Of a stretch of 64,000 nt of DNA, positions 4,573-61,730 are shown in pieces. A program made the position numbers and the translations under genes. Each line of letters opens with the position of its first letter. Position 1 is the stretch's first letter. The DNA comes from Eledone cirrhosa (taxonomy: Eukaryota). The stretch is taken from NCBI GenBank assembly GCA_964016885.1, contig OZ024766.1, positions 7,750,001-7,814,000 of the forward strand, written 5' to 3'. The notes below the pieces were generated by a model. That model searched no databases. It was given only the letters and a program-made list of their open reading frames with translations, and was not told the DNA's origin.

Positions 4573-5580
4573 AACCTTTAACATTTACATTATTCTATAT
4601 ATAATTATCTCACATAATATCGAATTTGAGATTTTGATATTATTTATTTTGAGAACAATACCTTAACATCAGTATGAATGGCCAGTTACAGCCAGTTTGA
4701 ACAGAAAGAGGTGAGAAAATTCTGGCCAGATATGGCTGGTTTAACCAGTTAGCATGACTATATATACTATTATATTTTCACAGTAAAGGCTTTACCTCAC
4801 GTAATATCTCACATAACATTTACATTACTCTATATATACTATTGTATTTTCACAGTAAAGGCTTTACCTCACATAATATCTCACATAACATTTACATTAC
4901 TCTATATATACTATTGTATTTTCACAGTAAAGGCTTTACCTCACATAATATCTCACATAACATTTACATTACTCTATATATACTATTGTATTTTCACAGT
5001 AAAGGCTTTACCTCACATAATATCTCACATAACATTTACATTACTCTATATATACTATTGTATTTTCACAGTAAAGGCTTTACCTCACATAATATCTCAC
5101 ATAACATTTACATTACTCTATATATACTATTGTATTGTCACAGTAAAGGCTTTACCTCACGTAATATCTCACATAACATTTACATTACTCTATACATACT
5201 ATTGTATTTTCACAGTAAAGGCTTTACCTCACATAACATTTACATTACTCTATATATACTATTGTATTTTCACAGTAAGGGCTTTACCTCACATAATATC
5301 TCACATAACATTTACATTACTCTATATATACTATTGTATTTTCACAGTAAAGACTTTACCTCACATAATATCTCACATAACATTTACATTACTCTATATA
5401 TACTATTGTATTTTCACAGTAAAGGCTTTACCTCACATAACATTTACATTACTCTATATATACTATTGTATTTTCACAGTAAAGGCTTTACCTCACATAA
5501 TATCTCACATAACATTTACATTACTCTATATATACTATTGTATTTTCACAGTAAAGGCTTTACCTCACATATCTCACATA
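4573..5580 (+). mobile_element. Degenerate TTAA/CCC piggyBac-like MITE copy followed by a 75/63-bp tandem array derived from the same MITE
   Basis: Unit tattttcacagtaaaggctttacctcacataatatctcacataacatttacattactctatatatactattg, about 11 copies at ~4760-5580. Homologous to the single-unit MITE at 63419-63638. Confidence 0.8.
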
Positions 5581-6528
5581 AACAACAACACCACCACCAT
5601 CATCATCACACACACAGCAGCAGGTTAATGAAACACCAAAGGATACACCACCACCACCACCACCAGCCTCCCCCCACCTCCCCCCAAACAACCCTCCCTC
5701 CCTCTGCACTCTTGTATTAGTCACACTAGGAAGTGGGTTAGGGGGGAGGGAGGGAGCAAGTAGGGGGAATGAGACCCAGAGGGGCGGGGATAAGTGGGGG
5801 GGGGTAATGAGGTGTGAGGCCCACGGTGAGGCAGAGAATTTGGGCAAGTGGTGGTGGTGGAGTTATTTCTGAGGAATGGAGGGAGAAGTATGGGGTGGGG
5901 AGGTGGGTGGTGGGAAGGAGGAGGGGGGGGATAGAGGTGGGGGTGAAAGGGTAACCCAACCCACCCCACCAGGGCAGTGTGGTGGAGAGGGAAGGATGGT
6001 AAATTTGGTTCTGGTAAAGTGTGTGTGTGTGTGGTAGTGTGGCTATGTGTGTTAGTGTGTGTGTGTATGCATGAGTGCGTACTGGCATGTATTGCACATG
6101 CGTGTGCATAACGCCTGCATATTGAGGAGAGAGGGGTGGGGGGGACATGTAACAGAGAGAGTGGGGGTGGAGAGAGAAAGAGGTGTGTGTGTGTATATAT
6201 ATAGAGAGATATATATAGAGAGGTGTGTATATATATATATATATATATACATATAGAGAGAGGGGGTGTATATATAGAGAGCAAAAGGTGTGTGTATAGA
6301 GAGAGAGGTGTATACATAGAGAGAGAGAGAGAGAGATAGAGAGATAGAGAGAGAGAGAGGGGGGTGTATATATAGAGAGCAAAAGGTGTATGTGTATAGA
6401 GAGAGTGTATACATATATATAGAGAAGTGTATATATATATATATATATACATATAGAGAGAGGGGGGTGTATATATAGAGAGACAGTTATATATATATAT
6501 ATATATAGAAAGAGAGAGAGAGAGAGAC

Positions 6529-7775: not shown

Positions 7776-7811
7776 ATGTTGAACGTCCACTATGTCGATG
7801 ACACAACAGTC

Positions 7812-9722
7812 TACACTGTAAAGTGGTCATGTAGGAGACACGGTAAAAAGGCTCCCAGTCCAGACTGTAAGATGGTCATGTAGGAGACACAGTAAAAAGG
7901 CTCCCAGTCCACACTGTAAAGTGGTCATGTAGGTAACACGGTAAAAAGGCTCCCAGTCCACACTGTAAAGTGGTCAATAGGAGACAGTAAAAAGGCTCCC
8001 AGTCCACACTGTAAGATGGTCATGTAGGAGACACAGTAAAAAGGCTCCCAGTCCACACTGTAAAGTGGTCATGTAGGAGACACAGTAAAAAGGCTCCCAG
8101 TCCACACTGTAAAGTGGTTATGTAGGTAACACGGTAAAAAGGCTCCCAGTCCACACTGTAAAGTGGTCATGTAGGAGACACAGTAAAAAGGCTCCCAGTC
8201 CACACTGTAAGGTGGTTATGTAGGAGACACAGTAAAAAGGCTCCCAGTCCACACTGTAAAGTGGTTATGTAGGTAACACGGTAAAAAGGCTCCCAGTCCA
8301 CACTGTAAGGTGGTCATGTAGGAGACACAGTAAAAAGGCTCCCAGTCCACACTGTAAAGTGGTCAATAGGAGACACAGTAAAAAGGCTCCCAGTCCACAC
8401 TGTAAGATGGTCATGTAGGAGACACAGTAAAAAGGCTCCCAGTCCACACTGTAAAGTGGTTGTGTAGGTAACACGGTAAAAAGGCTCCCAGTCCACACTG
8501 TAAAGTGGTCATGTAGGAGACACGGTAAAAAGGCTCCCAGTCTACACTATAATGTGGTCATGTAGGAGACACAGTAAAAAGGCTCCCAGTCTACACTATA
8601 ATGTGGTCATGTAGGAGACACAGTAAAAAGGCTCCCAGTCCACACTGTAAGGTGGTCATGTAGGAGACACGGTAAAAAGGCTCCCAGTCCACACTGTAAA
8701 GTGGTTGTGTAGGTAACACGGTAAAAGGCTCCCAGTCCACACTGTAAAGTGGTCATGTAGGAGACACAGTAAAAAGGCTCCCAGTCCACACTGTAAAGTG
8801 GTCATGTAGGAGACACGGTAAAAAGGCTCCCAGTCCACACTGTAAAGTGGTTGTGTAGGTAACACGGTAAAAAGTCTCCCAGTCCACACTGTAAGGTGGT
8901 CATGTAGGAGACACAGTAAAAAGGCTCCCAGTCCACACTGTAAGGTGGTCATGTAGGTAACACGGTAAAAAGGCTCCCAGTCCACACTGTAAGATGATCA
9001 TGTAGGAGACACGGTAAAAAGGCTCCCAGTCCACACTGTAAAGTGGTTGTGTAGGTAACACGGTAAAAAGGCTCCCAGTCCACACTGTAAAGTGGTCAAT
9101 AGGAGACACAGTAAAAAGGCTCCCAGTCCACACTGTAAGGTGGTCATGTAGGAGACACGGTAAAAAGGCTCCCAGTCTACACTGTAAAGTGGTCGTGTAG
9201 GAGACAGTAAAAAGGCTCCCAGTCCACACTGTAAAGTGGTTGTGTAGGTAACACGGTAAAAAGGCTCCCATACCACACTGTAAAGTGGTCATGTAGGTAA
9301 CACGGTAAAAAGGCTCCCAGTCCACACTGTAAAGTGGTCATGTAGGAGACATGGTAAAAAGGCTCCCAGTCTACACTGTAAAGTGGTCGTGTAGGAGACA
9401 GTAAAAAGGCTCCCAGTCCACACTGTAAAGTGGTTGTGTAGGTAACACGGTAAAAAGGCTCCCAGTCCACACTGTAAAGTGGTCATGTAGGAGACATGGT
9501 AAAAAAGCTCCCAGTCCACACTGTAAGGTGGTCATGTAGGAGACACAGTAAAAAGGCTCCCAGTCCACACTGTAAAGTGGTCATGTAGGAGACACGGTAA
9601 AAGGGCTCCCAGTCCACACTGTAAGGTGGTCATGTAGGAGACATGGTAAAAGGCTCCCAGTCCACACTGTAAGGTGGTCATGTAGGAGACACGGTAAAAA
9701 AGCTCCCAGTCCACACTGTAAA
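7812..9722 (+). repeat. 49-bp minisatellite array (~39 units)
   Basis: Unit cacactgtaaagtggtcatgtaggagacacggtaaaaaggctcccagtc. Related low-copy versions lie in the SINE-like elements at ~12100-12165 and 17020-17200 (reverse). Confidence 0.92.
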
Positions 9723-10131
9723 TCATGATGGGCTAGCGTCAAACAATGTGCATTTCAGCATAGAGTTACGGCCCTTTACATTCGGAGTTGAAATCCCACA
9801 TGACAGACGTTTTACATGCAGTATACACCAGCTTTAATATAAAACAGACAGACAACAACAACAGCAGCTCTACAATCTCAGAGATTATTGGCTGGGTTAA
9901 TTGGAAGCCGAGTATCAACGACAGATTAACGGGGGAAGGAGGGGCAGAAAGAGAGAAGAGGGGAGGGGTGAGGCTAATCCAGGTAGAATTAGACGGGGGT
10001 GGGAGGGGGAGGCTAATCCAGGAATAATTAGACGTGAGGGAATGGGAATTAAGACTTAGTGCTGGTTTGTAAAATAATTTTTATATACAAAAAAATATCT
10101 ATATACATATATACATACATTATATGTATAC

Positions 10132-10172
<41 letters not shown>

Positions 10173-10175
<3 letters not shown>

Positions 10176-11583
10176 GACCGTGACCTCTGGCGTCACGCAG
10201 TAATACAGAAGACCCGACTTCCCACGGATACAAGCTGAAGCTGAAGCATATAAACTATATGTCCCCACCCACTGCAAAGTAGTCGTGGAGGTGCCACGGC
10301 AAAAAAGCACTCAGCCCTCACTGTAAAGTGGTCATGGAGGTGCCACGGCAAAAAAGCACCCAGCCCTCACTGTAAAGTGGTGGTGGAGGTGTCAGGGCAA
10401 AAAAGCACTCAGCCCTCACTGTAAAGTGGTCATGGAGGTGCCACGGCAAAAAAGTACTCAGCCCTCACTGTAAAGTGGTCATGGAGGTGCCAGGGCAAAA
10501 AAGCACTCAGCCCTCACTGTAAAGTGGTCATGGAGGTGCCAGGGCAAAAAAGCACTCAGCCCTCACTGTAAAGTGGTCATGGAGGTGCCACGGCAAAAAA
10601 GCACTCAGCCCTCACTGTAAAGTGGTCATGGAGGTGCCAGGGCAAAAAAGCACTCAGCCCTCACTGTAAAGTGGTCGTGGAGGTGCCACGGCAAAAAAGC
10701 ACCCAGCCCACACTGTAAAGTGGTCATGGAGGTGCCACGGCAAAAAAGCACTCAGCCCTCACTGTAAAGTGGTCATGGAGGTGCCACGGCAAAAAAGCAC
10801 CCAGCCCACACTGTAAAGTGGTCATGGAGGTGCCAGGGCAAAAAAGCACTCAGCCCTCACTGTAAAGTGGTCATGGAGGTGCCAGGGCAAAAAAACACCC
10901 AGCCCACACTGTAAAGTGGTCATGGAGGTGCCACGGCAAAAAAGCACCCAGCCCTCACTGTAAAGTGGTCATGGAGGTGCCAGGGCAAAAAAACACCCAG
11001 CCCTCACTGTAAAGTGGTGGTGGAGGTGCCAGGGCAAAAAAGCACCCAGCCCACACTGTAAAGTGGTCATGGAGGTGCCACGGCAAAAAAGCACTCAGCC
11101 CTCACTGTAAAGTGGTCATGGAGGTGCCATGGCAAAAAAGCACCCAGCCCACACTGTAAAGTGGTCATGGAGGTGACATGACAAAAAGCAACCAGCCCTC
11201 ACTGTAAAGTGGTTATGGAGGTGCCACGGCAAAAAAGCACTCAGCCCTCACTGTAAAGTGGTCATGGAGGTGCCAGGGCAAAAAAGCACTCAGCCCTCAC
11301 TGTAAAGTGGTCATGGAGGTGCCACGGCAAAAAAGCACTCAGCCCTCACTGTAAAGTGGTCGTGGAGGTGCCACGGCTAAAAAGCACCCAGTCCACACTG
11401 TAAATGAGGTTGGTGTTAGGAAGGGCATCCAGCTGTAGAAATCAAGCCAGAATCAGTTCTCATAAGAGCAAAACAAGGTCAGCCGACCGGACACTCTCCA
11501 CAACAGGACAACCCGTCTAACCCATGCTAGCGTGGAAGAACGAACGTAAAATGGTGATGATGATGATGATGATAATAATGATA
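10173..11583 (+). mobile_element. Non-autonomous retroposon with (GAT)n tail (RTE-partner-like SINE), carrying an internal 49-bp array (~23 units, 10270-11400)
   Basis: Same 5' end (cacgaccgtgac), ggaagggcatccagctgtagaaa core and (gat)n tail as the unexpanded copy at 62254-62624. Confidence 0.8.
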
Positions 11584-33390: not shown

Positions 33391-33440
<50 letters not shown>

Positions 33441-33635
33441 AACGAGTAGGACCCCGACGGCTGAGCTCAAGCCGTTTCGACGGCTAATTCTGGACTAAAA
33501 TCCAGAATTAGCCGTCGAAACGGCTTGAGCTCAGCCGTCGGGGTCCTACTCGTTCCTATTACCCACTCTACTACCCTAAGTATTGAGTACTTTGGTGCGT
33601 TATGGTCCACCTGGTTCCTTACCACATTTCCTTCG

Positions 33636-33672
<37 letters not shown>

Positions 33673-33801
33673 GAAGTTCTATTTAAATTGTTGGGATACA
33701 ACAAGCAAATATTTTTATAACTGATATAAAGCACTCAACAAGTTATTGGAGTAAAAATACGATATATTAACAAATGGAAACTATATTTATAAAACCATAT
33801 T

Positions 33802-33866
33802 TATTTCATTATACATATTTCAAGGACACCAAGTTAAATTATGGTGTGCTTTCATCAGATAAAATA
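33802..33866 (-). ncRNA. Type-I hammerhead ribozyme, family C (element 33670-33942)
   Basis: tattttat CTGATGA aag c acacca..tggtgt c ctt GAA AT atgt AT A atgaaata. Confidence 0.8.
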
Positions 33867-33944
33867 TAATATAGATCAGTTTTATAAATAAATATTGACA
33901 TACCCTTAAAGAATGCAACCATTTCTGTTGGAAGCTCCCGGACA

Positions 33945-35245: not shown

Positions 35246-36103
35246 GTATGTGTTTATATATCCATACACAGACATATATACATGCATACTTACATATAAA
35301 CATGTATGTATATGCATATACATACATACACGTACACCCACACATACATATACACGCACAGATATACATACATACATACATAAATACACACATACACACA
35401 TACATACAAACATTTGTACATACACAAATACACACATACATACATATATACACACACACACACATACATACACACATAAGCACATACACACATACATATA
35501 CATACATACACACACGCATGCATACACACATAAGCACATACACACATACATATACATACATACACACATACACATATACATACACATACACACATACATA
35601 TATACACACATACATACACATACACACATACATATATACACACATACATATATACACACATACATACATACACAGATATACTCAACATCAAAACCCGCCC
35701 TTCATATTCAAGTCTTAGGGAAAGAGCAAATGAGGGTCAAAACGCCCTTTTAATCTTCAGAGAGGGCAAAGTGTAATGGCCTCTGCACCCTCACACACCC
35801 AGCAATGACTTCACCTCCAGTACACCGCCCCACATTACTGCCAAAACCACATATCTCTATATATATAAATTTGTAGTTCCTGTCTGTTTGTTTGTTTGTT
35901 CACGAACTCCTATGGTTTTGGAGATAGACCCCCCATAACTATATATATTCTGAAACTACATTGCTCAGGGTACTTGGATAAGTATATTTCATTTTAATCA
36001 AAGGGTTCCCTGGAGGCACAACCCCCCCCCCCCCCGCGGAAAAGCCCCCAATGAAAATATTTTCCCTTCGATTTATATGAAATATATATATATATATATA
36101 TAT

Positions 36104-36306
36104 ATTATTATTATGTAATAAACAACATAAGGCAATTATTCCATTTACCAGTGGTTTCTTAAAAGCAAAAGGTTTTGCTTTCAATCCTCAGAATGAAAAA
36201 TCCTGGATTTTTCATTCTGAGGATTGAAAGCAAAACCTTTTGCTTTTAAGAAACCACTGGTAAATGGAATAATTGCCTTATGTTGTTTATTACATAATAA
36301 TAATAA
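36104..36306. mobile_element. Perfect ~100-bp-arm fold-back, family F, with two minimal hammerhead-like cores
   Basis: Centre at ~36204. Core CTGAGGA tt GAA AGCAAAA cc TTTTGCT T; stem I is weak. Confidence 0.7.
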
Positions 36307-36775: not shown

Positions 36776-36811
<36 letters not shown>

Positions 36812-36815
<4 letters not shown>

Positions 36816-37178
36816 GATATTAATAAATGGAAACTATATTTATAAAACCATATTTATTTCATTATACATATTTCAGGGATACCACATTAAATTATGGTAT
36901 GCCTTCGTCAGACAAAATACAATATATAACAGTTTTACAAATAGGTTTGACGTACCCTTTAAAATACAACCATTACTTATATTGTATTTTGTCTGATGAA
37001 GGCATACCATAATTTAATGTGGTATCCCTGAAATATATATAATAGAATAAATATGCTTTTATAAATATAGTTTCCATTTATTTAATATCGTATATCTACT
37101 CCAAAAATTTGTCGAGTGCTTTATATCAGTTATAAAAATATTTGCTTGTTGTATCCCAACAACTTTAAATAGAACTTT

Positions 37179-37182
<4 letters not shown>
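36812..37182. ncRNA. Inverted pair of family C hammerhead elements (- 36855-36919; + 36985-37049)
   Basis: CTGAYGA agg c atacca..tggtat c cct GAA AT at(a/g)t AT A. Confidence 0.8.
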
Positions 37183-37446: not shown

Positions 37447-37610
37447 AGTCTAGCAAAGTTCTTTCGTTGCACATCTGCAACATCGTCAGTGGTGCTATTA
37501 TGTTGCCTCCCGTTGTATTGTATGCCTACGCCATCTTTATTTAGTATAAATAAAGATGGCGTAGGCATACAATACAACAGGAGGCAACATAATAACACCA
37601 CTGACGATGT
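37447..37610. ncRNA. Fold-back element, family G, with a hammerhead core at 37451-37493 (-)
   Basis: CTGACGA t gttgca-gatg-tgcaac GAA AG aa CT T; arms centred at ~37546. Confidence 0.55.
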
Positions 37611-37640
37611 ATATATATATGTATATATATATATATATAT

Positions 37641-38013
37641 ACAATGATATTAATAAATGGAAACTATATTTATAAAACCATATTTATTTTATTATATATA
37701 TTTCAAGGGCAACCAAGACAGCATTGGTGCGCTTTCATCAGATAAAATCCAGTTAATTTCCAACCGATACGGTATGATTTTCATGGGTATGTCTCTATTT
37801 ATAAAACACACTTTGTATTTTATCTGATGAAAGCGTACCAAGGTTGTCTTGGTACCCTTGAAATATATATAATAAAATAAATAGTGTTTTATAGATATAG
37901 TTTCCATTTATTTAATATCATTGAATATTTACTCCAGTAAACTGTTGAGTGCTCTAAATCAGTTATAAACATTTATGTTTGTCGGACTGCCAACTAATTA
38001 AATACCACTTCTA

Positions 38014-38015
<2 letters not shown>
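37641..38015. ncRNA. Inverted pair of diverged family C hammerhead elements (- 37685-37748; + 37816-37879)
   Basis: tattttat CTGATGA aag c gtaccaag-gttgt-cttggtac c ctt GAA AT atat AT A ataaaata. Confidence 0.8.
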
Positions 38016-40705: not shown

Positions 40706-40735
<30 letters not shown>

Positions 40736-40736
<1 letters not shown>

Positions 40737-41173
40737 CGATATTAACAAATGGAAACTATATTTATAAAACCATATTTATTTCATTATACATATTTCAAGG
40801 ACACCAAGTTAAATTATGGTGTGCTTTCATCAGATAAAATATAATATAGGTCAGTTTTATAAATAAATATTGACATACCCTTAAAGAATGCAACCATATA
40901 TATCCGGGAGCTTCCAACAGTAATGGTTGCATTCTTTAAGGGTATGTCAATATTTATTGATAAAACTGATCTATATTATATTTTATCTGATGAAAGCACA
41001 CATAATTTAACTTGGTGTCCTTGAAATATGTATAATGAAATAAATATGGTTTTATAAATATAGTTTCCATTTGTTAATATATCGTATTTTTCTCCAATTA
41101 TTTGTTGAGTGCTTTATATCAGTTATAAAAATATTTGCTTGTTGTATCCCAACAAATTAAATAGAACTTCTAC
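40736..41173. ncRNA. Inverted pair of family C hammerhead elements (- 40777-40841; + 40979-41042)
   Basis: Same fold as 33802; arms of ~160 bp around 40896-40922. Confidence 0.8.
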
Positions 41174-41197
41174 ATATATATATAGACATATATATAA

Positions 41198-41760: not shown

Positions 41761-42838
41761 ATAGATAGATAGATAGATTTCTTTATTTGCCACAAGGGCG
41801 CACAAGAAAAGGGGACAATACAAAGTCACATGCCGGGGATTTTACATACAATCTTGTAAAAATATTGAAACAAACAAATTAAACAATCGAAATCCCCAAT
41901 AGGGGGGAGGCGCCACAAATGGGTTGTTTAATACCCCGTAGATAGAACAACCCTCAACTTCAGGAGTGTGTTGTGCAAGTGCTCCTTTCTTCCTTTTGCT
42001 CTCTTCTTCAACCTACAGGTTTATATACAGAGAAGGCCATTTTTGCTTCATTCACCCACCTTTCAGTAAATTTACTGGGGTGCAGTGCCTCTCTCTCCAC
42101 CCTGATTCTCCTTCTAAAGTGGTACCTAAAGAAGGGAATGAGTTGTTGTCCGGAGAGAAAGGCATTTGTCCCCAGTCCTCTCAACCTCGTCCACCATATA
42201 ACACCTTTCAGTAAATTTACTGGGGTGCAGTGCCTCTCTCTCCACTCTGATTCTCCTTCTAAAGTGGTACCTAAAGAAGGGAATGAGTTGTTGTCCGAAG
42301 AGAAAGGCATCTGTCCTCAGTCTTCTCAACCTTGTCCACCATATTACCTCTTTCACCATAGCCACTGTACAGAGGAAAACCGCCTCTCTTTCGTTTTTAA
42401 ATGAAGGTGGCAGTTTTATGCATTCTATGGACTCGGCAGTCAACTGGATTTGTCCCATACGCCACAGCAGTTGTTCTGCGTAGTTCCACAGGTCGGTTAC
42501 GCCCGGGCAGTGTACAATTGCGTGCAGGAGGGTTTCAATGTCCTGCTCGCATCTTGGACACGTCCTCTTGGAAGGATCCCTGCCAGGGCGTCCGTGCCTG
42601 TAGATCTTGTCTCGAACTGGTAGAGCTCCTCGGTAGCACTGCCAGGCCAGAGACCTCTGGAAGTTATCCATAGGTCCCGGGCGGAAAGTCCTCCCGAACA
42701 GAATGGTCAGTTCGTCCTCCATGATGCCTAGAGTTTCTCTGAGAACGTCGTCGCACTTATCCTCCACTAATCCCCTGTAGAATGTCGAAGTGGAGTCTCC
42801 GCTGGTAGAGGGCTGTGAGCGCCTGAAGGCACTCGAGG
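41761..42838 (-). mobile_element. Tx1/L1-clade LINE 3' end ending in (TCTA)n, with a ~145-bp internal duplication
   Basis: AWQCYRGALPVRDK...TCPRCEQDIETLLHAIVHCP (zf-RVT CCHC); tail gtggcaaataaagaaa(tcta)n. Confidence 0.85.
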
Positions 42839-44721: not shown

Positions 44722-44845
<124 letters not shown>

Positions 44846-44971
44846 AAATAAGTTAAAGTGTACACCTACATATGTATACGGAAGTATTAGTATGCATATA
44901 AATACACACATGTATACATATGTACATGTACTCAGTTTTTCACTAGACACTTTACAGTGAGTGTCAGCTAG

Positions 44972-45024
<53 letters not shown>

Positions 45025-45027
<3 letters not shown>

Positions 45028-45436
45028 GGAGGTGAGTTTTATTGTAGTACAATAAAGCAATGCAGATATCGGATAAGAAGCACTCTACAGTTTGTGGGAC
45101 TGGAGTATGCATAATATAAGATCAAAAGATGGTTAAAGGAGTTCAATATATTTTATTATGCGCATTTCAAAAACAAACATCATCAAACAATAATATTTGT
45201 GTTTTCATCAGATAAAACAGGAGAACATGATATGAAGGCTAAAAAAAACACTTGTTGATAGTGCAGTTTTATCATATGTTGATTTAAAACTGCACTATCA
45301 ACAAGTGTTTTTTTAGCCTTCATATCATGTTCTCCTGTTTTATCTGATGAAAACACAAATATTATTGTTTGATGACGTTTGTTTTTGAAATGCGCATAAT
45401 AAAATATATTGAACTCCTTTAACCATCTTTTGATCT

Positions 45437-45478
<42 letters not shown>

Positions 45479-45604
45479 AATTAAGTTAAAGTGTACATCT
45501 ACATATGTATACGGAAGTATTAGTATGCATATAAATACACACATGTATACATATGTACATGTACTCAGTTTTTCACTAGACACTTTACAGTGAGTGTCAG
45601 CTAG

Positions 45605-45652
<48 letters not shown>

Positions 45653-46046
45653 GGAGGTGAGTTTTATTGTAGTACAATAAAGCAATGCAGATATCGGATT
45701 TGAAGCACTCTACAGTTTGTAGGACTGGAGTATACATAATATATAAGAACAAAAGATGGTTAAAGGAGTTCCATGTATTTTATTATGCGCATTTCAAAAA
45801 CAAATATCATCATGCAATAATATTTGTGTTTTCATCAGATAAAACAGGAGGACATGATATGAAGGCTAACATATGTTGATTTAAAACTGATTTAAAACTG
45901 AACTATCCACAAGTGTTTTTTAGCCTTCATATCATGTCCTCCTGTTTTATCTGATGAAAACACAAATATTATTGCATGATGATATTTGTTTTTGAAATGC
46001 GCATAATAAAATACATGGAACTCCTTTAACCATCTTTTGTTCTTAT
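45025..46046. ncRNA. Two tandem inverted pairs of family D hammerhead elements (- 45149-45219, + 45336-45406, - 45776-45846, + 45943-46013)
   Basis: tgttttat CTGATGA aaac-acaaatattat..atgatatttgt-tttt GAA AT GCGC AT A ataaaata; palindromic GCGC loop III. Confidence 0.85.
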
Positions 46047-46157
46047 ATATTATATATATATATATATATATGTGTATATATATGGATATATATGGAGAAA
46101 CAAGATGGCGTAGGACAGAACGAAGGAGAGGCACAAAAACAAAGAAAAGAATCCCCA

Positions 46158-46200
46158 GTCACTGAAGAGGTCACAGAATGTGTGACGAAAGAACTTTGAC
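46158..46200 (+). ncRNA. Type-I hammerhead, family G
   Basis: GTCA CTGAAGA g gtcaca-gaatg-tgtgac GAA AG aa CT T TGAC. Related cores at 48008-48051 (+) and 48726-48768 (-). Confidence 0.7.
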
Positions 46201-46377: not shown

Positions 46378-46946
46378 AGGGAGGGTAAAATTCCCGAGAT
46401 CCATGGACGAGTTCTCTCCAGCTGTCTCTGTCCCTCATTATCGCTGCCATGTCCTGCGTCTCCAACAGACCAGTGTCTGTCCTTAGGGCATCAACATACG
46501 TTAACCTTGGTCTTCCTCTTCCAGTGTGTCCATGTAGGGGCTCCCACGGGAGCACTGAGTGCAATGTCAACTCTGGATGTCGGTGAGCATGTCCAGCTAA
46601 CCCAGTGTGTCCATGTAGGGGCTCCCACAGGAGCACTGAGTGCAATGTCAACTCTGGATGTCGGTGACCATGTCCAGCTAACCTAGTGTGTCCATGTAGG
46701 GGCTCCCACAGGAGCACTGAGTGCAATGTCAACTCTGGATGCCAGTGAGCATGTCCAGCTAACCTCAGTCTCCTCTGTGTCACTTTTGAGCTGACTTTTG
46801 GGAGGCTCCCATACAGCTCTGAGTCCTTCATCCTCAGTGTATACTGATTAATGTTCAGAGCCATCCTCAGCATTCTCGTGTAGCACCCATCCACCATCTG
46901 AGTGAGTTTCTTGGTCAGTGTCCAAGTCTCAGACCCGTACAGCAGC
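46378..46946 (-). mobile_element. RTE LINE 3' end with an 81-bp segment triplicated in frame
   Basis: LLYGSETWTLTK...([26 protein letters not shown])x3...RDSWRELV. Another fragment at 47675-47790 (+). Confidence 0.88.
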
Positions 46947-47348
46947 ATGTATAAATATATATGTGTATATATACAGCTTGTATAAATATATACATATATA
47001 TATACATACAGTGGCGGACTGGCCAGGCTGCAAGAGCTCACAGTAGCTTTGCAGGGCCCACTGTAGTATTTTAGAGGCCAATGCTTTGCTTTCAGAAAAA
47101 ACCTGAAATCTAAGAGAAAGAATAAAATTTTTTAAGCAAAGCGTATGGTCAGCCAAGGAGGGGGAGAAATGGGGTGCAACAGAAATGAAACATGGATTAC
47201 AGGTTAAAATATAGTCTAGATAGATGTGAAACGAAACTTAGATGTAGTTTATGGAAGACCCAAATGATTTAGAAGTCGACCTTAAGTAGGAGCAATAACA
47301 TTAAGAAAGGCATGAACGACACTACAACACTTTGTTTTGAACATTTTC

Positions 47349-47671: not shown

Positions 47672-47843
47672 CAAATGGTGGATGGGTGCTACACGAGAAT
47701 GCTGAGGATGGCTCTGAACATTAATCAGTATACACTGAGGATGAACAACTCAGAGCTGTTTGGGAGCATCCCAAAAGTCAGCTCAAAAGTACAGTACATG
47801 GAAGGGATATATTAGGTTAACGCTTGATATAGCAGGAAGAGGG

Positions 47844-47879
47844 TCTTAACGTTTCTGACGCTAGTCCTTCATCAGAAGA
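47844..47879 (-). ncRNA. Minimal PLE-type hammerhead
   Basis: TCTT CTGATGA ag-gac-tagc-gtc-a GAA A cg T T AAGA; AACGTT palindrome at stem III. Confidence 0.65.
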
Positions 47880-48115
47880 AAGAATGAGAAATAAGATAGA
47901 TTGAGGGGACGGGTGGGGTGGAGTTGGAAAAAAAATGTCTTTAGATAAAAATAACAGGTCCACTCATGTTGACATCTCGTGTGTGTATATATATATGTAT
48001 AGAAGTATATTACTGATGATGTCACAGGTGTGTGATGAAATAACTTTGATAGACTATATATATATATTTATAATTTTAGGGATAACCAAAGAGTGCTTAG
48101 AAATACATTGTTTTA

Positions 48116-48671: not shown

Positions 48672-48727
<56 letters not shown>

Positions 48728-48799
48728 CCGAGTTCTTTCGTTACACATCTGTGACATCATCAGTGATATTATGTTTCCTCTGTTGTATTGAAAAACATT

Positions 48800-48831
<32 letters not shown>

Positions 48832-48836
<5 letters not shown>

Positions 48837-49189
48837 ATATCAAAAGATGGTTAAAGGAGTTCTATGTATTTTATTATGCGCATTTCAAAAACAAATATCA
48901 TCATGGGATGATATTTGCGTTCTCATCAGATAAAATGTTGATTTAACACTTCACTGCTCGCAAGTGTTTTTTAAGCTTCATATCATGTCTCCCTATTTTA
49001 TCTGATGAGAACGCAAATATCATCCCATGATGATATTTGTTTTAGAAATGCGCATAATAAAATACAAGGAACTCTTTTAACCATCTTTTGATTTTATATT
49101 ATTTATACTCCAGTTCTATTAACTGTTGAGTGCTACTTATCCGATATTTGCATTGTTTTATTGTGTTACAATAAAACTCACCTCCTACA
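48832..49189. ncRNA. Inverted pair of family D hammerhead elements (- 48867-48936; + 48994-49064)
   Basis: CTGATGA gaac-gcaaatatcatc-ccat-gatgatatttgt.. GAA AT GCGC AT A ataaaata. Confidence 0.8.
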
Positions 49190-52236: not shown

Positions 52237-53164
52237 ACACATTGTAGTGGAGTTTGTTGGTGACTGTTTTCACAAAAAAAAAAAAAATACAGGACGGGGG
52301 GGGTTACACGACAACAACAACAGCATCAACGTAACAGGATATACATAGAACGGGAAAAATGATTACAGCCACAACACATCATCTATAAATATATAACTAC
52401 ACAGTACCCTAACTGCCCCCTAAAATCAGTTTAAGGAGCAGGGACCTACCTTTCCTAATTGTTTTCAGGTAGGTTGGTTCGTCGGCTGGCTGGTTGGTTG
52501 GCCGGTTTTTCTCAGGTAAGTTATTATGTATACATATATATATATATATGGTGGCTGCCAACTTGTTTTCGAGTACGGCCACTACTTTATATATCCATGT
52601 AGGAGAACCCCTACTGATGCGCTGAACGAGTGTGACTGTTTAGTCCAGCCAGCAACTTGAAAACTCTGGTACAAACACTACACTTGTGACAATTATTGAC
52701 ACATAGTGCTGGGCCCATGGTACCATGTGATGACAAGTGCAGAGAGATCTCCAGATATAAAGCAATGCCTGTGCCGTGAAGCTTTTATAGTGAGCAAAGG
52801 CACTGCACAAAGCCAGTCCCACTCTCTTAACCAAGATGATATTTACCAAAAAGAAGAACAAGACAACATCATTGGATACCATCAGGGTTGCAGGTGTTAT
52901 ATCAGAGTTTTCCTTCTCCTAGAATTCGGGGTCCTGAACTTTTTCCTATATATATTATATAGGAACGAGTAGGACCCCGACAGCTGAGCTCAAGCCGTTT
53001 CGACGGCTAATTCTGGACTAAACTTTTAGTCCAGAATTAGCCGTCAAAACAGCTTGAGCTCAGCCGTCGGGGTCCTACTCGTTCCTATTACCCACTCTAC
53101 TACCCTAAGTATTGAGTACTTTGGTGCGTTATGGTCCATCTGGTTCCTTACCACATTTCCTTCG

Positions 53165-53295: not shown

Positions 53296-53722
53296 GAAGT
53301 TCTATTTAAATTGTTGGGATACAACAAGCAAATATTTTTATAACTGATATAAAGCACTCAACAAATTATTGGAGTAAAAATACGATATATTAACAAATGG
53401 AAAGTATAATATATATATATATATACATACATATATACATATATACATATATACATATATATATACATATATACATATATACATACATTACATATATACA
53501 TAGATACATACATTACATATATACATAGATACATATATACATACATATATATGGGGAAAGGTTCAGGACCCCGACGGCTGAGCTCCGGCCGTTTCGACAG
53601 CTAGATCCGAAAAGTTCGGATTTAGCTGTCGAAGCGGCAGGAGCTCAGCCGTCGGGGTCCTTAATATTTTCCTATTATCCACTCTACTACCCAAAGTATC
53701 GAGTACTCTGGTGCGTTATGGT

Positions 53723-55098: not shown

Positions 55099-55298
55099 AC
55101 GTTATTCCGGGTTGAATCGGAGGTAACCACAGTAAGTAAGGTACTCAATACATAGCAGAGTATAAAAGTTTTAATATAGAAGAGATTCTACAGGACTAGA
55201 ACTGTTTCATTCATTAGAAATCATCAGGAATCTGATTCCTGATGATTTCTAATGAATGAAACAGTTCTAGTCCTGTAGAATCTCTTCTATATTAAAAC
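55099..55298. ncRNA. Back-to-back family B hammerheads (- 55184-55232; + 55234-55282)
   Basis: ...tcatcaggaatc T gattcctgatga...: both copies complete and separated by 1 nt. A degenerate copy (GAAA to AAAA) is at ~53800-53846. Confidence 0.85.
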
Positions 55299-55496
55299 TA
55301 TATATATATATATATCAAATAGGGTGTCGTAAGGAACCAGGTGGACCATAACCCACCAGAGTACTCAATACATAGAGTAGTAGAGTGGGTAATAGGAAAA
55401 GAGTCAGGACCCCGACGGCTGAGCTCCGAACTGTTCGGATCTAGCTGTCCAAACGGCAGGAGCTCAGCCGTCGTTGTCATGACTCTTTTCAACAAT

Positions 55497-56823: not shown

Positions 56824-58075
56824 TAGATATATAGACAGATAGATAGATAGATAGATATCTTTCTTTATTTGCCACAGGGGCGTACAAAAATGGGACATTA
56901 CAAGACGTGACAGCGGGGGTTTTACATAAAAATCATATAACTATAACATTAATAAATAACAATAAACTATATATAATAAAGTAACAATTGAAATCCCCAA
57001 TGGGGGGGGGGGGGGTAACGCTATTGCGGGGTTGTTTTACACCCCATGGATAGAACAACCGTCAACACCAGGAACACGTTTTGTAGGTGTTCCTGTCTTC
57101 CCTCTGTTTGTCTTCCTCAACCTACAGGTTTATATACAGAGAAGGGCCCATTCACTCGGGCCATTCTCGCCACATTCACCCACCTTTCAGCGAATATACT
57201 GGGGTGTAGCCCCTCTCTCTCTCCACTCTCACCTTCCTTCTGAAGTGGTACTTAAAGAAGGGGATGAGTTATTGTCCGGAGAGAAAGGTGTTTGCCCTCA
57301 GTCCTTTTAACCTCCTCCACCATATTACCTCTTTCGCCACAGCCACCAGGCAGAGGAAAACCGCCTCTCCTTCATTCTTAAATGAAGGCGGCGGGTTGAT
57401 CCTCACGATGGACTCGGCTGACAACTGGATGCATCCCACACGTGACAGCAGCTGTTGGACATAATTCCACAGGTCGGTCACCCCTGGGCACTGAACAATT
57501 GCGTGCAGAACGGTTTCGATGTCCTGCTCGCATCTTGGACAGGTCCTTTTGGCAGGATCTCTGCCAGGGCATCCGTGCTGTAGATCTTGTCTCGAACTGG
57601 TAGAGCTCCTCGGTAGCACTGCCAGGCCAGAGACCTCTGGAAGTTATCCATAGGCCCCGGACGAAAAGTCCTCCCGAACAGACTGGTCAGTTCGTCCTCC
57701 TCGATGCCTAGAGTTTCCCTGAGAACGTCGTCGCACTTATCCTCAGATAGATATGTTTCTTTATTAGCCACAAGGGCACAAAAGAAGGGGCCAAATAGAT
57801 AGATAGATGGACATATAGATGGACAGACAGATGGATAGATAGACAGATATATTTCTTTATTTGCCACAGGGGTGTACAAAAATGGGACATTACAAGACGT
57901 GGCAGCAGGGGTTTTACATAAAAATCATATAACTATAACATTAATAAATAACAATAAACTATATATAATAAAATAACAATTAAAATCCACAATAGGGGGA
58001 GGGGGACGTTACTGCAGGGTTGTTTTACATCCCCTGGATGGAACAACCCTCAACACCAGGAACATGTTTTGTAGG
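56824..58075 (-). mobile_element. Three stacked Tx1/L1-clade 3' ends in (GATA)n
   Basis: 56824-57744 encodes TCPRCEQDIETVLHAIVQCP (frameshifted); further 3' tails at 57745-57795 and 57841-58075. Confidence 0.85.
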
Positions 58076-59011: not shown

Positions 59012-61730
59012 GGAGGCACGTGGCCTAGTGGTAAGAGTGTTGGACTTACGATCATAATGTCGTCGGTTTGATTCCTGGGCTGCTTGTTGTGTTCTTGAGC
59101 AAAACACTTCATTTCACGTTGCTCCAGTATACTCAGCTGAAAATGAGTACCAGCAATAGCTGGAGGTTTCACCCTGTGATGGACTGGTGTCCTGTCCAGG
59201 GGTAAGTCTTGTTCTCTCATTCACTTAACACCAATGAAACTAAGACAGACTTTAACCCTGTGATGGACTGGTGTCCTGTCCAGGGGGAAGTCTTGTACTC
59301 TCAGTCACTTAACACCAATGAAACTAAGACAGACTTTAACCCTGTGATGGACTGGTGTCCTGTCCAGGGGGAAGTCTTGTACTCTCAGTCACTTAACACC
59401 AATGAAACTAAGACAGACTTTAACCCTGTGATGGACTGGTGTCCTGTCCAGGGGGAAGTCTTGTACTCTCAGTCACTTAACACCAATGAATCTACGACAG
59501 ATTTTAACCCTGCGATGGACTGGTGTCCTGTCCAGGGGGAAGTCTTGTACTCTCAGTCACTTAACACCAATGACACTAAGACTGACTTTAACCCTGTGAT
59601 GGACTGGTGTCCTGTCCAGGGGGAAGTCTTGTACTCTCAGTCACTTAACACCAATGACACTAAGACTGACTTTAACCCTGTGATGGACTGGTGTCCTGTC
59701 CAGGGGGAAGTCTTGTACTCTCAGTCACTTAACACCAATGAAACTAAGACAGACTTTAACCCTGTGATAGACTGGTGTCCTGTCCAGGGGGAAGTCTTGT
59801 ACTCTCAGTCACTTAACACCAATGAAACTAAGACAGACTTTAACCTTGTGATGGACTGGTGTCCTGTCCAGGGGGAAGTCTTGTACTGTCAGTCACTTAA
59901 CACCAATGAAACTAAGACAGACTTTAACCCTGTGATGGACTGGTGTCCTGTCCAGGGGGAAGTCTTGTACTCTCAGTCACTTAACACCAATGACACTAAG
60001 ACAGACTTTAACCCTGTGATGGACTGGTGTCCTGTCCAGGGGGAAGTCTTGTACTCTCAGTCACTTAACACCAATGAAACTAAGACAGACTTTAACCCTG
60101 TGATGGACTGGTGTCCTGTCCAGGGGGAAGTCTTGTACTCTCAGTTACTTAACACCAATGAAACTAAGACAGACTTTAACCCTGTGATGGACTGGTGTCC
60201 TGTCCAGGGGGAAGTCGTGTACTCTCAGTCACTTAACACCAATGACACTAAGACTGACTTTAACCCTGTGATGGACTGGTGTCCTGTCCAGGGGGAAGTC
60301 TTGTACTCTCAGTCACTTAACACCAATGAAACTAAGACAGACTTTAACCCTGTGATAGACTGGTGTCCTGTCCAGGGGGAAGTCTTGTACTCTCAGTCAC
60401 TTAACACCAATGAAACTAAGACAGACTTTAACCTTGTGATGGACTGGTGTCCTGTCCAGGGGGAAGTCTTGTACTGTCAGTCACTTAACACCAATGAAAC
60501 TAAGACAGACTTTAACCTTGTGATGGACTGGTGTCCTGTCCAGGGGGAAGTCTTGTACTCTCGGTCACTTAACACCAATGACACTAAGACAGACTTTAAC
60601 CCTGTGATGGACAGGTGTCCTGTCCAGGGGGAAGTCTTGTACTCTCTGTCACTTAACACCAATGAAACTAAGACAGACTTTAACCCTGTGATGGACTGGT
60701 GTCCTGTCCAGGGGGAAGTCTTGTACTCTCAGTCACTTAACACCAATGACACTAAGACAGACTTTAACCCTGTGATGGACAGGTGTCCTGTCCAGGGGGA
60801 AGTCTTGTACTCTCTGTCACTTAACACCAATGAAACTAAGACAGACTTTAACCCTGTGATGGACTGGTGTCCTGTCCAGGGGGAAGTCTTGTACTCTCAG
60901 TCACTTAACACCAATGACACTAAGACTGACTTTAACCCTGTGATGGACTGGTGTCCTGTCCAGGGGGAAGTCTTGTACTCTCAGTCACTTAACACCAATG
61001 ACACTAAGACTGACTTTAACCCTGTGATGGACTGGTGTCCTGTCCAGGGGGAAGTCTTGTACTCTCTGTCACTTAACACCAATGAAACTAAGACAGACTT
61101 TAACCCTGTGATGGAGTGGTGTACTGTCCAGGGGGAAGTCTTGTACTGTCAGTCACTTAACACCAATGAAACTAAGACAGACTTTAACCCTGTGATGGAC
61201 TGGTGTCCTGTCCAGGGGGAAGTCTTGTACTCTCAGTCACTTAACACCAATGACACTAAGACAGACTTTAACCCTGTGATGGACAGGTGTCCTGTCCAGG
61301 GGGAAGTCTTGTACTCTCTGTCACTTAACACCAATGAAACTAAGACAGACTTTAACCCTGTGATGGACTGGTGTCCTGTCCAGGGGGAAGTCTTGTGCTC
61401 TCAGTCACTTAACACCAATGACACTAAGACTGACTTTAACCCTGTGATGGACTGGTGTCCTGTCCAGGGGGAAGTCTTGTACTCTCTGTCACTTAACACC
61501 AATGCAACTAAGACAGACTTTAACCCTGTGATGGACTGGTGTCCTGTCCAGGGGGAAGTCTTGTACTCTCTGTCACTTAACACCAATGCAACTAAGACAG
61601 ACTTTAACCCTGTGATGGACTGGTGTCCTGTCCAGGGGGAAGTCTTGTACTCTCAGTCACTTAACACTAATGAAACTGTGATAAGCACCGGCCAAATGAT
61701 CCTTCTGGCTTAAGACAGACTTTAGACTTT
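59012..61730 (+). mobile_element. tRNA-derived (V-SINE-like) SINE with an internal 84-bp array (~30 units, 59171-61677)
   Basis: A box TGGCCTAGTGG, B-box-like GGTTTGATTCC, body ccctgtgatggactggtgtcctgtccagggg; the SINE tail resumes at gaaactgtgataagcaccggcc. Confidence 0.85.

Follow-up and report, generated by a model that had tools for sequence, protein, structure and literature searches.

Paired hammerhead motifs at an Eledone cirrhosa locus probably belong to short head-to-head insertions of Penelope-like element ends

Results

Two palindromic units carry four hammerhead motifs

The window, by which we mean the whole stretch of 64,000 nucleotides of Eledone cirrhosa DNA that was analysed, consists of microsatellite-rich eukaryotic DNA. 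At the block described here, a descriptor scan located four hammerhead motifs of type I, all of which have the core CUGAUGA...GAAA-UGCGCA-UA (Table 1). A sequence-only reading of this DNA had proposed four hammerheads with a GCGC loop III and same-strand copies about 610-630 nt apart; the scan and its shuffle controls showed the motifs to be real, and the measured spacing is 607 nt on the plus strand and 627 nt on the minus strand. That reading overlooked that motifs on opposite strands pair up as arms of inverted repeats that are nearly perfect, and that the window holds a third copy of the same family (family D).

Each unit is about 420 bp long and consists of one head-to-head pair, the two arms of which are about 140-160 bp long and 99-100% complementary. 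The 3' ends of the arms face outward; one arm closes in (TA)n, and the other extends for about 85 nt before (TA)n is reached. Because the third copy carries a homologous tail, we regard this extension as part of the element. The same order, that is, (TA)n, arm, inverted arm with tail and (TA)n, was found in all seven hammerhead pairs examined in the window, which represent three families. Single tailed arms stand alone at 26.7k and 33.8k. Three copies of a family with an ATGT loop (26657-26930, 33670-33943 and 40734-41175) have the common 5' start TCCGGGAG and end at the tail; copies with this start are solo pLTR-sized units of about 275 nt, with a fixed 5' boundary that precedes an intact hammerhead by about 85 nt.

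Table 1. Features of the hammerhead block and of the third family copy (positions in the window).
Feature	Position	Strand	Remarks
Segment X, copy 1	44842..44975		134 nt; spacer without hammerhead, flanked by (TA)n; candidate for a long target-site duplication on either side of unit 1
(TA)n tract, insertion target	44976..45023		48 nt
Unit 1 tail	45025..45110	-	~85-nt 3' extension, on one arm only; homologous tails occur in unit 2 and within the third copy (49108-49188)
Unit 1 tailed arm (pLTR-like 3' end)	45111..45271	-	inverted-repeat alignment; arms differ by 1 substitution and 1 gap over 160 nt
Hammerhead core, unit 1 tailed arm	45211-45157	-	motif 45149..45219; predicted cut 3' of 45157
Unit 1 junction	45272..45284	+	13-nt spacer; plus arm begins at palindrome CATATG (45273)
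Unit 1 tailless arm, closed by (TA)n	45285..45444	+	inverted-repeat alignment
Hammerhead core, unit 1 tailless arm	45344-45398	+	motif 45336..45406; predicted cut 3' of 45398
Segment X, copy 2	45475..45608		flanked by (TA)n at 45438-45475 and 45609-45648; 2 substitutions from copy 1
Unit 2 tail	45650..45730	-	4 substitutions in 85 nt from unit 1 tail
Unit 2 tailed arm	45731..45869	-	arms without substitutions in 126 nt
Hammerhead core, unit 2 tailed arm	45838-45784	-	descriptor and family-pattern scans
Unit 2 junction with the unpaired 5' stretch of the plus arm	45870..45919	+	starts CATATG; short internal duplication; 50-nt spacer
Unit 2 tailless arm, ending in (TA)n	45920..~46046-46058	+	
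Hammerhead core, unit 2 tailless arm	45951-46005	+	descriptor and family-pattern scans
Third head-to-head family D copy	48824..49188		cores 48929-48875 (-) and 49002-49056 (+); tail on plus arm

The family pattern matched six times in the window, at the four motifs of the block and twice in the third copy, and it did not match in any of 100 shuffles. A broader type I scan returned 15 motifs in the window compared with a mean of 0.23 (maximum 2) in 60 block-Markov shuffles. A chance origin of the motifs was ruled out by both tests. A protein-coding role for the block was also considered and rejected.

The helices are conserved and loop III stays self-complementary

In family D, stem I has 8 bp, helix II is long, and stem III is formed by A15.1-U16.1 plus one U-A pair closed by GCGC, which leaves a helix III of only 2 bp in the monomer. 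The motifs depart from the usual hammerhead by an A-U pair that replaces G10.1-C11.1 and by an AUA triplet. We compared 13 window copies (11 of them distinct) of family D and a related family. The predicted helices were paired in 98.5% of 198 cells, compared with 33-62% for slid controls, and 6 of 18 pairs showed two-sided change among the 11 distinct copies, a count that is not a probability because these sequences are related. Loop III occurs in these copies as GCGC, ATAT or ATGT, a change of sequence that keeps self-complementarity. The motifs thus combine the conserved core and the three helices of a type I hammerhead with helix covariation that spares the core.

The catalytic core positions are untouched by all 40 listed read variants (of 49) in the stretch 45025-45290. 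One variant disrupts the palindrome of loop III; it was found in 1183 of 2033 reads of run X24 and in none of the contigs of runs X1 and X7, and it probably represents one amplified locus. A search against Rfam gave zero matches at the gathering threshold and no hammerhead family among 79 matches at E<=10; the sub-threshold matches to miRNA models at E<=10 reflect hairpin shape only and were dismissed.

The sequence-only reading had listed further self-complementary loops in other families. ATAT could be confirmed, AACGTT occurs in a minimal motif near 47855 on the minus strand, and CTAG was not found as a loop III. The TGAGCTCA loop is present within a GAAAC...GTC stem, the CUGANGA half of which was not found by our scans.

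Several other inverted or hammerhead-like repeats were observed in the window. At 36103-36305 lies a palindrome that is perfect over 101 bp around a 1-nt centre and has an extension on one side; in its hammerhead, helix II measures 11-12 bp and helix III (CCACTGG) is not palindromic. Near-perfect palindromes of another family with a one-sided tail are located at 15598-15712, 20855-20974, 33436-33559, 52959-53088, 53551-53675, 55167-55299 and 55396-55490; several of them have the GAAAC...GTC stem with a GAGCTC-type palindromic loop, and here too the scans did not find a CUGANGA half. A further hammerhead-like family (37450-37610, 46162-46196, 48013-48060 and 48720-48765) lies near an element end and has CUGANGA, a 7-8-bp helix II and GAAAGAAC or GAAATAAC. 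The minimal hammerhead-like motif with the AACGTT palindrome (47830-47880, minus strand) has a helix II loop that contains CTAG.

The remaining side observations concern more familiar repeats. Fragments at 26300-26540, 26915-27553, 46379-46960 and 47690-47790 resemble what we take to be the 3' end of an RTE-type LINE; their only Pfam match is DUF6451, and an 81-bp triplication is located at 46521-46763. LINE remnants on the minus strand (42129-42830 and 57272-57924) gave zf-RVT matches below the curated cut-off. Single C2H2 zinc-finger matches, likewise below this cut-off, lie at 25943-26146 (plus strand) and 52614-52784 (minus strand) and may come from an exon or a repeat. Minisatellite arrays with units of about 49, 45, 84 and 72 bp occupy 7807-11413, 12814-15065, 59167-61677, and 4758-5581 together with 16121-16751, respectively, and the 49-bp and 72-bp units recur inverted near 62.3-63.6k.

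Reads reveal an abundant family with two 3' end points

Reads and contigs from 4 of 24 listed runs were placed on 45025-45290, which covers 266 of the 1205 bases of the block. Joints to 45290 were excluded because the stretch itself includes the first bases of the second arm. From the raw DNA run X24, 4933 of 12,467,656 reads fell on these 266 bp, and run X1 contributed 2962 contigs; family D is very abundant. Read ends were found at 45111 and 45025. Because 296 reads depart at 45111 into (TA)n and others bear the tail, the family has two 3' end points. Upstream, 176 reads continue beyond 45271, and contigs join the CATATG start at 45273 from 45220 and from 45233. None of the six joints listed for the 266-bp stretch is a head-to-tail joint. 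In the reads, unit 1 carries minority alleles (for example at 45145 and 45187) and unit 2 majority alleles. The sole contig placed from run X4 (piece 9, 164 nt, depth 3.2) is identical to 45025-45188, including the minority alleles of unit 1.

Folding predicts masked hammerheads

The sequence-only reading had noted that minimal PLE hammerheads with a short stem III are proposed to cleave as dimers, and had extended this to a transcript that would cut twice and release a circularisable unit of about 0.6 kb. We modelled both by in silico folding at equilibrium and without proteins. With isolated arms and a neutral linker, a double hammerhead costs 4.9 kcal/mol compared with 21.1 kcal/mol for two monomers, which, together with a loop III that stays self-complementary despite sequence change, suggests that these motifs would suit dimer cleavage. 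Whole units fold into one long hairpin (MFE -224 to -266 kcal/mol), in which each hammerhead motif would cost 95-99 kcal/mol to form. For the construct 45330-46020, in which one antisense arm is left, the double hammerhead costs 86.8 kcal/mol, and for the minus strand 85.5 kcal/mol. The predicted probability of CUGAUGA being unpaired is 0.000 both while the RNA is being made and once a first cut is assumed, and freeing the sense motif would take 84-93 kcal/mol in either state.

Because the antisense arm is transcribed ahead of the sense motif in every case on either strand, and because the double hammerhead is far uphill, a retrozyme circle of about 0.6 kb from this block is unlikely according to these models, and the proposed double cut is not supported: the motifs are predicted to be masked, and it is (TA)n and not cleavage sites that delimits the units. 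That the same-strand hammerheads would act in cis as a dimer to release an RNA that is then circularised is thus a very improbable account of the block. It has on its side the pairs of same-strand motifs 607 and 627 nt apart, the favourable dimer geometry of isolated arms, a loop III self-duplex of -10.5 kcal/mol and the description of axolotl retrozymes as cutting better as dimers (PMC7229834). The same source describes animal retrozymes as units of 150-450 bp that are repeated head to tail and have one hammerhead each, whereas the 633-bp repeat found here holds (TA)n tracts and palindromes, each palindrome with two motifs in opposite orientation, its units are about 6% apart with mirrored differences, the listed joints lack a head-to-tail one, and the computed tandem transcript offers no foldable hammerheads.

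The units resemble inserted ends of Penelope-like elements

Each unit is probably a short non-coding insertion of a Penelope-like element (PLE) in which two pLTR-like 3' ends stand head to head and mask the hammerhead. We infer the PLE origin from the architecture: an inverted pLTR lies beside a 5'-truncated copy, the tail is found at one end in all seven pairs, and the target is (TA)n. PMC8557442 and PMC3846280 describe PLE insertions that have an inverted pLTR, a one-sided tail, (TA)n as the target and palindromes where inverted copies meet, and PMC4209133 (Cervera and de la Pena) describes PLE hammerhead pairs on opposite strands 100-700 bp apart, as well as variants with a small palindromic helix III. 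The tail of about 85 nt exceeds the usual 30-40 bp of PLEs and counts against this assignment. No remnant of a PLE reverse transcriptase or GIY-YIG domain was found by Pfam in 119 stop-to-stop frames of the window, chosen by complexity; the matches in these frames were zf-C2H2, zf-RVT, DUF6451 and weak chance hits only. In metagenome, viral and prokaryote genome contigs, pattern scans returned 0 loci. As it stands, we are probably dealing with a family of PLE ends that is present in high copy number and has not been described but is otherwise ordinary, and similar hammerhead variants may already be present in the supplementary figures of PMC4209133.

We also considered whether the palindromic unit is itself mobile, as a MITE-like or hairpin non-autonomous element amplified as a whole. 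Perfect palindromes recur in the window and the 5' start is fixed, within 3 nt of CATATG for family D and at TCCGGGAG in all three full copies of family A. The end of the second arm varies, however, among 45271, the equivalent of 45242, 45233, 45220 and a point just past the core in the third copy; copies differ in which arm, the long or the short one, bears the tail; and the tailed single arms at 26.7k and 33.8k stand against amplification of whole palindromes. We therefore give this alternative little credence.

Origin of the 633-bp repeat

The duplication of about 630 bp that the sequence-only reading had noted is present in the assembled sequence with an offset of 633, with starts at 44842 and 45475 (not 45474, as first given), and both of its ends lie within (TA)n. 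The non-repetitive part of segment X has no third copy in the window. Between units 1 and 2, seven arm substitutions are mirrored in both arms and one is unmirrored, and the arms are 5.6-6.3% apart. Because monomers derived from one circle would start identical, the mirrored differences show that the units are not such monomers, and a rolling-circle origin of the repeat was rejected. A plain duplication is likewise insufficient to account for mirrored changes.

Weighed against duplication with conversion, it is slightly more likely than not that units 1 and 2 are separate insertions, each from a different family variant, and that X became a long target-site duplication on either side of unit 1. 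The minority alleles in unit 1 and majority alleles in unit 2 support this reading. Nicks set far apart in two (TA)n tracts could produce this duplication, and long target duplications are described for other retroelements (PMC9977147). Because the divergence of X (1.5%) is not significantly different from that of the element (5.2-5.7%; Fisher p 0.09), the long-duplication step is weak.

A plausible but less probable account starts from the same PLE remnants and invokes a segmental duplication by unequal (TA)n exchange with subsequent homogenisation of the arms by conversion, or two alleles assembled in tandem. It agrees with the (TA)n at both repeat ends, the repetition of X, tail and arms in the same order, the CATATG start of both plus arms, and the non-significant divergence difference. 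The CATATG start, however, is common to other copies too, and three pairs with 51-62-nt spacers are unhomogenised (6/120, 10/117 and 6/113), whereas unit 2, with a 50-nt spacer, is homogenised. The identity of the X4 contig to unit 1 over 164 nt is a weak argument, given one contig of depth 3.2, that this allele combination may exist elsewhere.

Discussion

Taking the units as PLE insertions, we propose that each (TA)n insertion would consist of two pLTR-like 3' ends of about 170-260 nt, linked head to head, of which one was copied from the tail end and the other from the tailless end. The hammerhead would be the normal pLTR ribozyme of the family, working as a dimer through its palindromic loop III, and it would be conserved because the source copies need it. 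Read-through RNA of either strand would fold each unit into a hairpin of about 140-160 bp, so that the block is probably a pair of inert remnants and at most a source of double-stranded RNA. For the anole PLE, both strands are described as nicked and extended, with the tail between two reverse-transcription starts, and hammerhead cleavage as protein-assisted and dispensable for insertion in vitro (PMC11167929).

Two pairs in the window suggest that two RNA templates per insertion are possible. In the pair at 37634-38015 (37.8k), from the family with ATAT or ATGT loops, the arms differ at 10/117 positions, including a compensatory change from C-G to U-A in a helix II pair, each form of which is found in other copies. 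In the pair at 36807-37180 (36.95k), the arms differ at 6/120 positions and have ATGT and ATAT loops, each again found in other copies. Predicted loop III pairing gave -10.5 and -3.2 kcal/mol for the homodimers and +1.7 kcal/mol for the GCGC/ATAT heterodimer, which is unpaired. Because homodimers pair and the heterodimer does not, the palindrome could be a signal that unites two RNAs.

We put forward, as a speculation with a low probability, that head-to-head PLE insertions arise from two RNAs that are held in trans by loop III, the double hammerhead serving as a signal for RNA dimerisation, and are primed by the dimeric PLE protein at two opposite-strand nicks, with starts at the tail end and the tailless end and cDNAs joined at a short palindrome. 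Two templates do not require loop III pairing, however, and later ectopic conversion could mimic discordant arms; PMC3846280 favours self-priming on an antisense template. Our literature search did not find a model of insertion by two RNAs paired through loop III. If the idea is true, the duplicated X could likewise result from nicks far apart in two (TA)n tracts, and the idea would bear on the role of the PLE hammerhead. In a genome rich in short head-to-head insertions, the idea is testable by counting arm alleles. Counts of hammerheads per kb in such genomes call for caution, as most of these motifs would be masked by their own inverted copy.

Comparison with known systems

The animal non-LTR retrozymes described by Cervera and de la Pena 2020 (PMC7229834) and in the Li et al. 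2026 preprint (10.64898/2026.07.22.740005) share with the block a non-coding nature, low GC, a type I hammerhead derived from PLE pLTRs and two same-strand motifs within 1 kb. Unlike the present palindromes with their masked motif, which are separated by microsatellites, retrozymes have one free hammerhead in each head-to-tail unit, and their circles have been detected.

The likeness to the 5'-truncated insertions of EN+ PLEs of the Penelope/Poseidon, Neptune and Hydra clades (PMC8557442, PMC3846280, PMC4209133) includes a terminal repeat that contains the type I hammerhead with its short palindromic helix III, a head-to-head inverted copy, a tail confined to one end, (TA)n as the target and palindromes where inverted copies meet. 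The units found here differ in having no ORF and a tail of about 85 nt instead of 30-40, and their copies have a fixed 5' start that resembles solo pLTR-sized non-autonomous units. Compared with the PLE hammerheads of Drosophila, rotifer and shrimp (Cervera and de la Pena 2014), the present motifs have an A10.1-U11.1 pair in place of G-C, the AUA triplet, an 8-bp helix I and, following the first 3 bp of helix II, a pyrimidine mismatch that is conserved. They have in common with these variants, as described there, the CUGANGA/GAAA core, a long helix II, a palindromic 15.2-16.2 pair plus loop 3, and pairs on opposite strands 100-700 bp apart.
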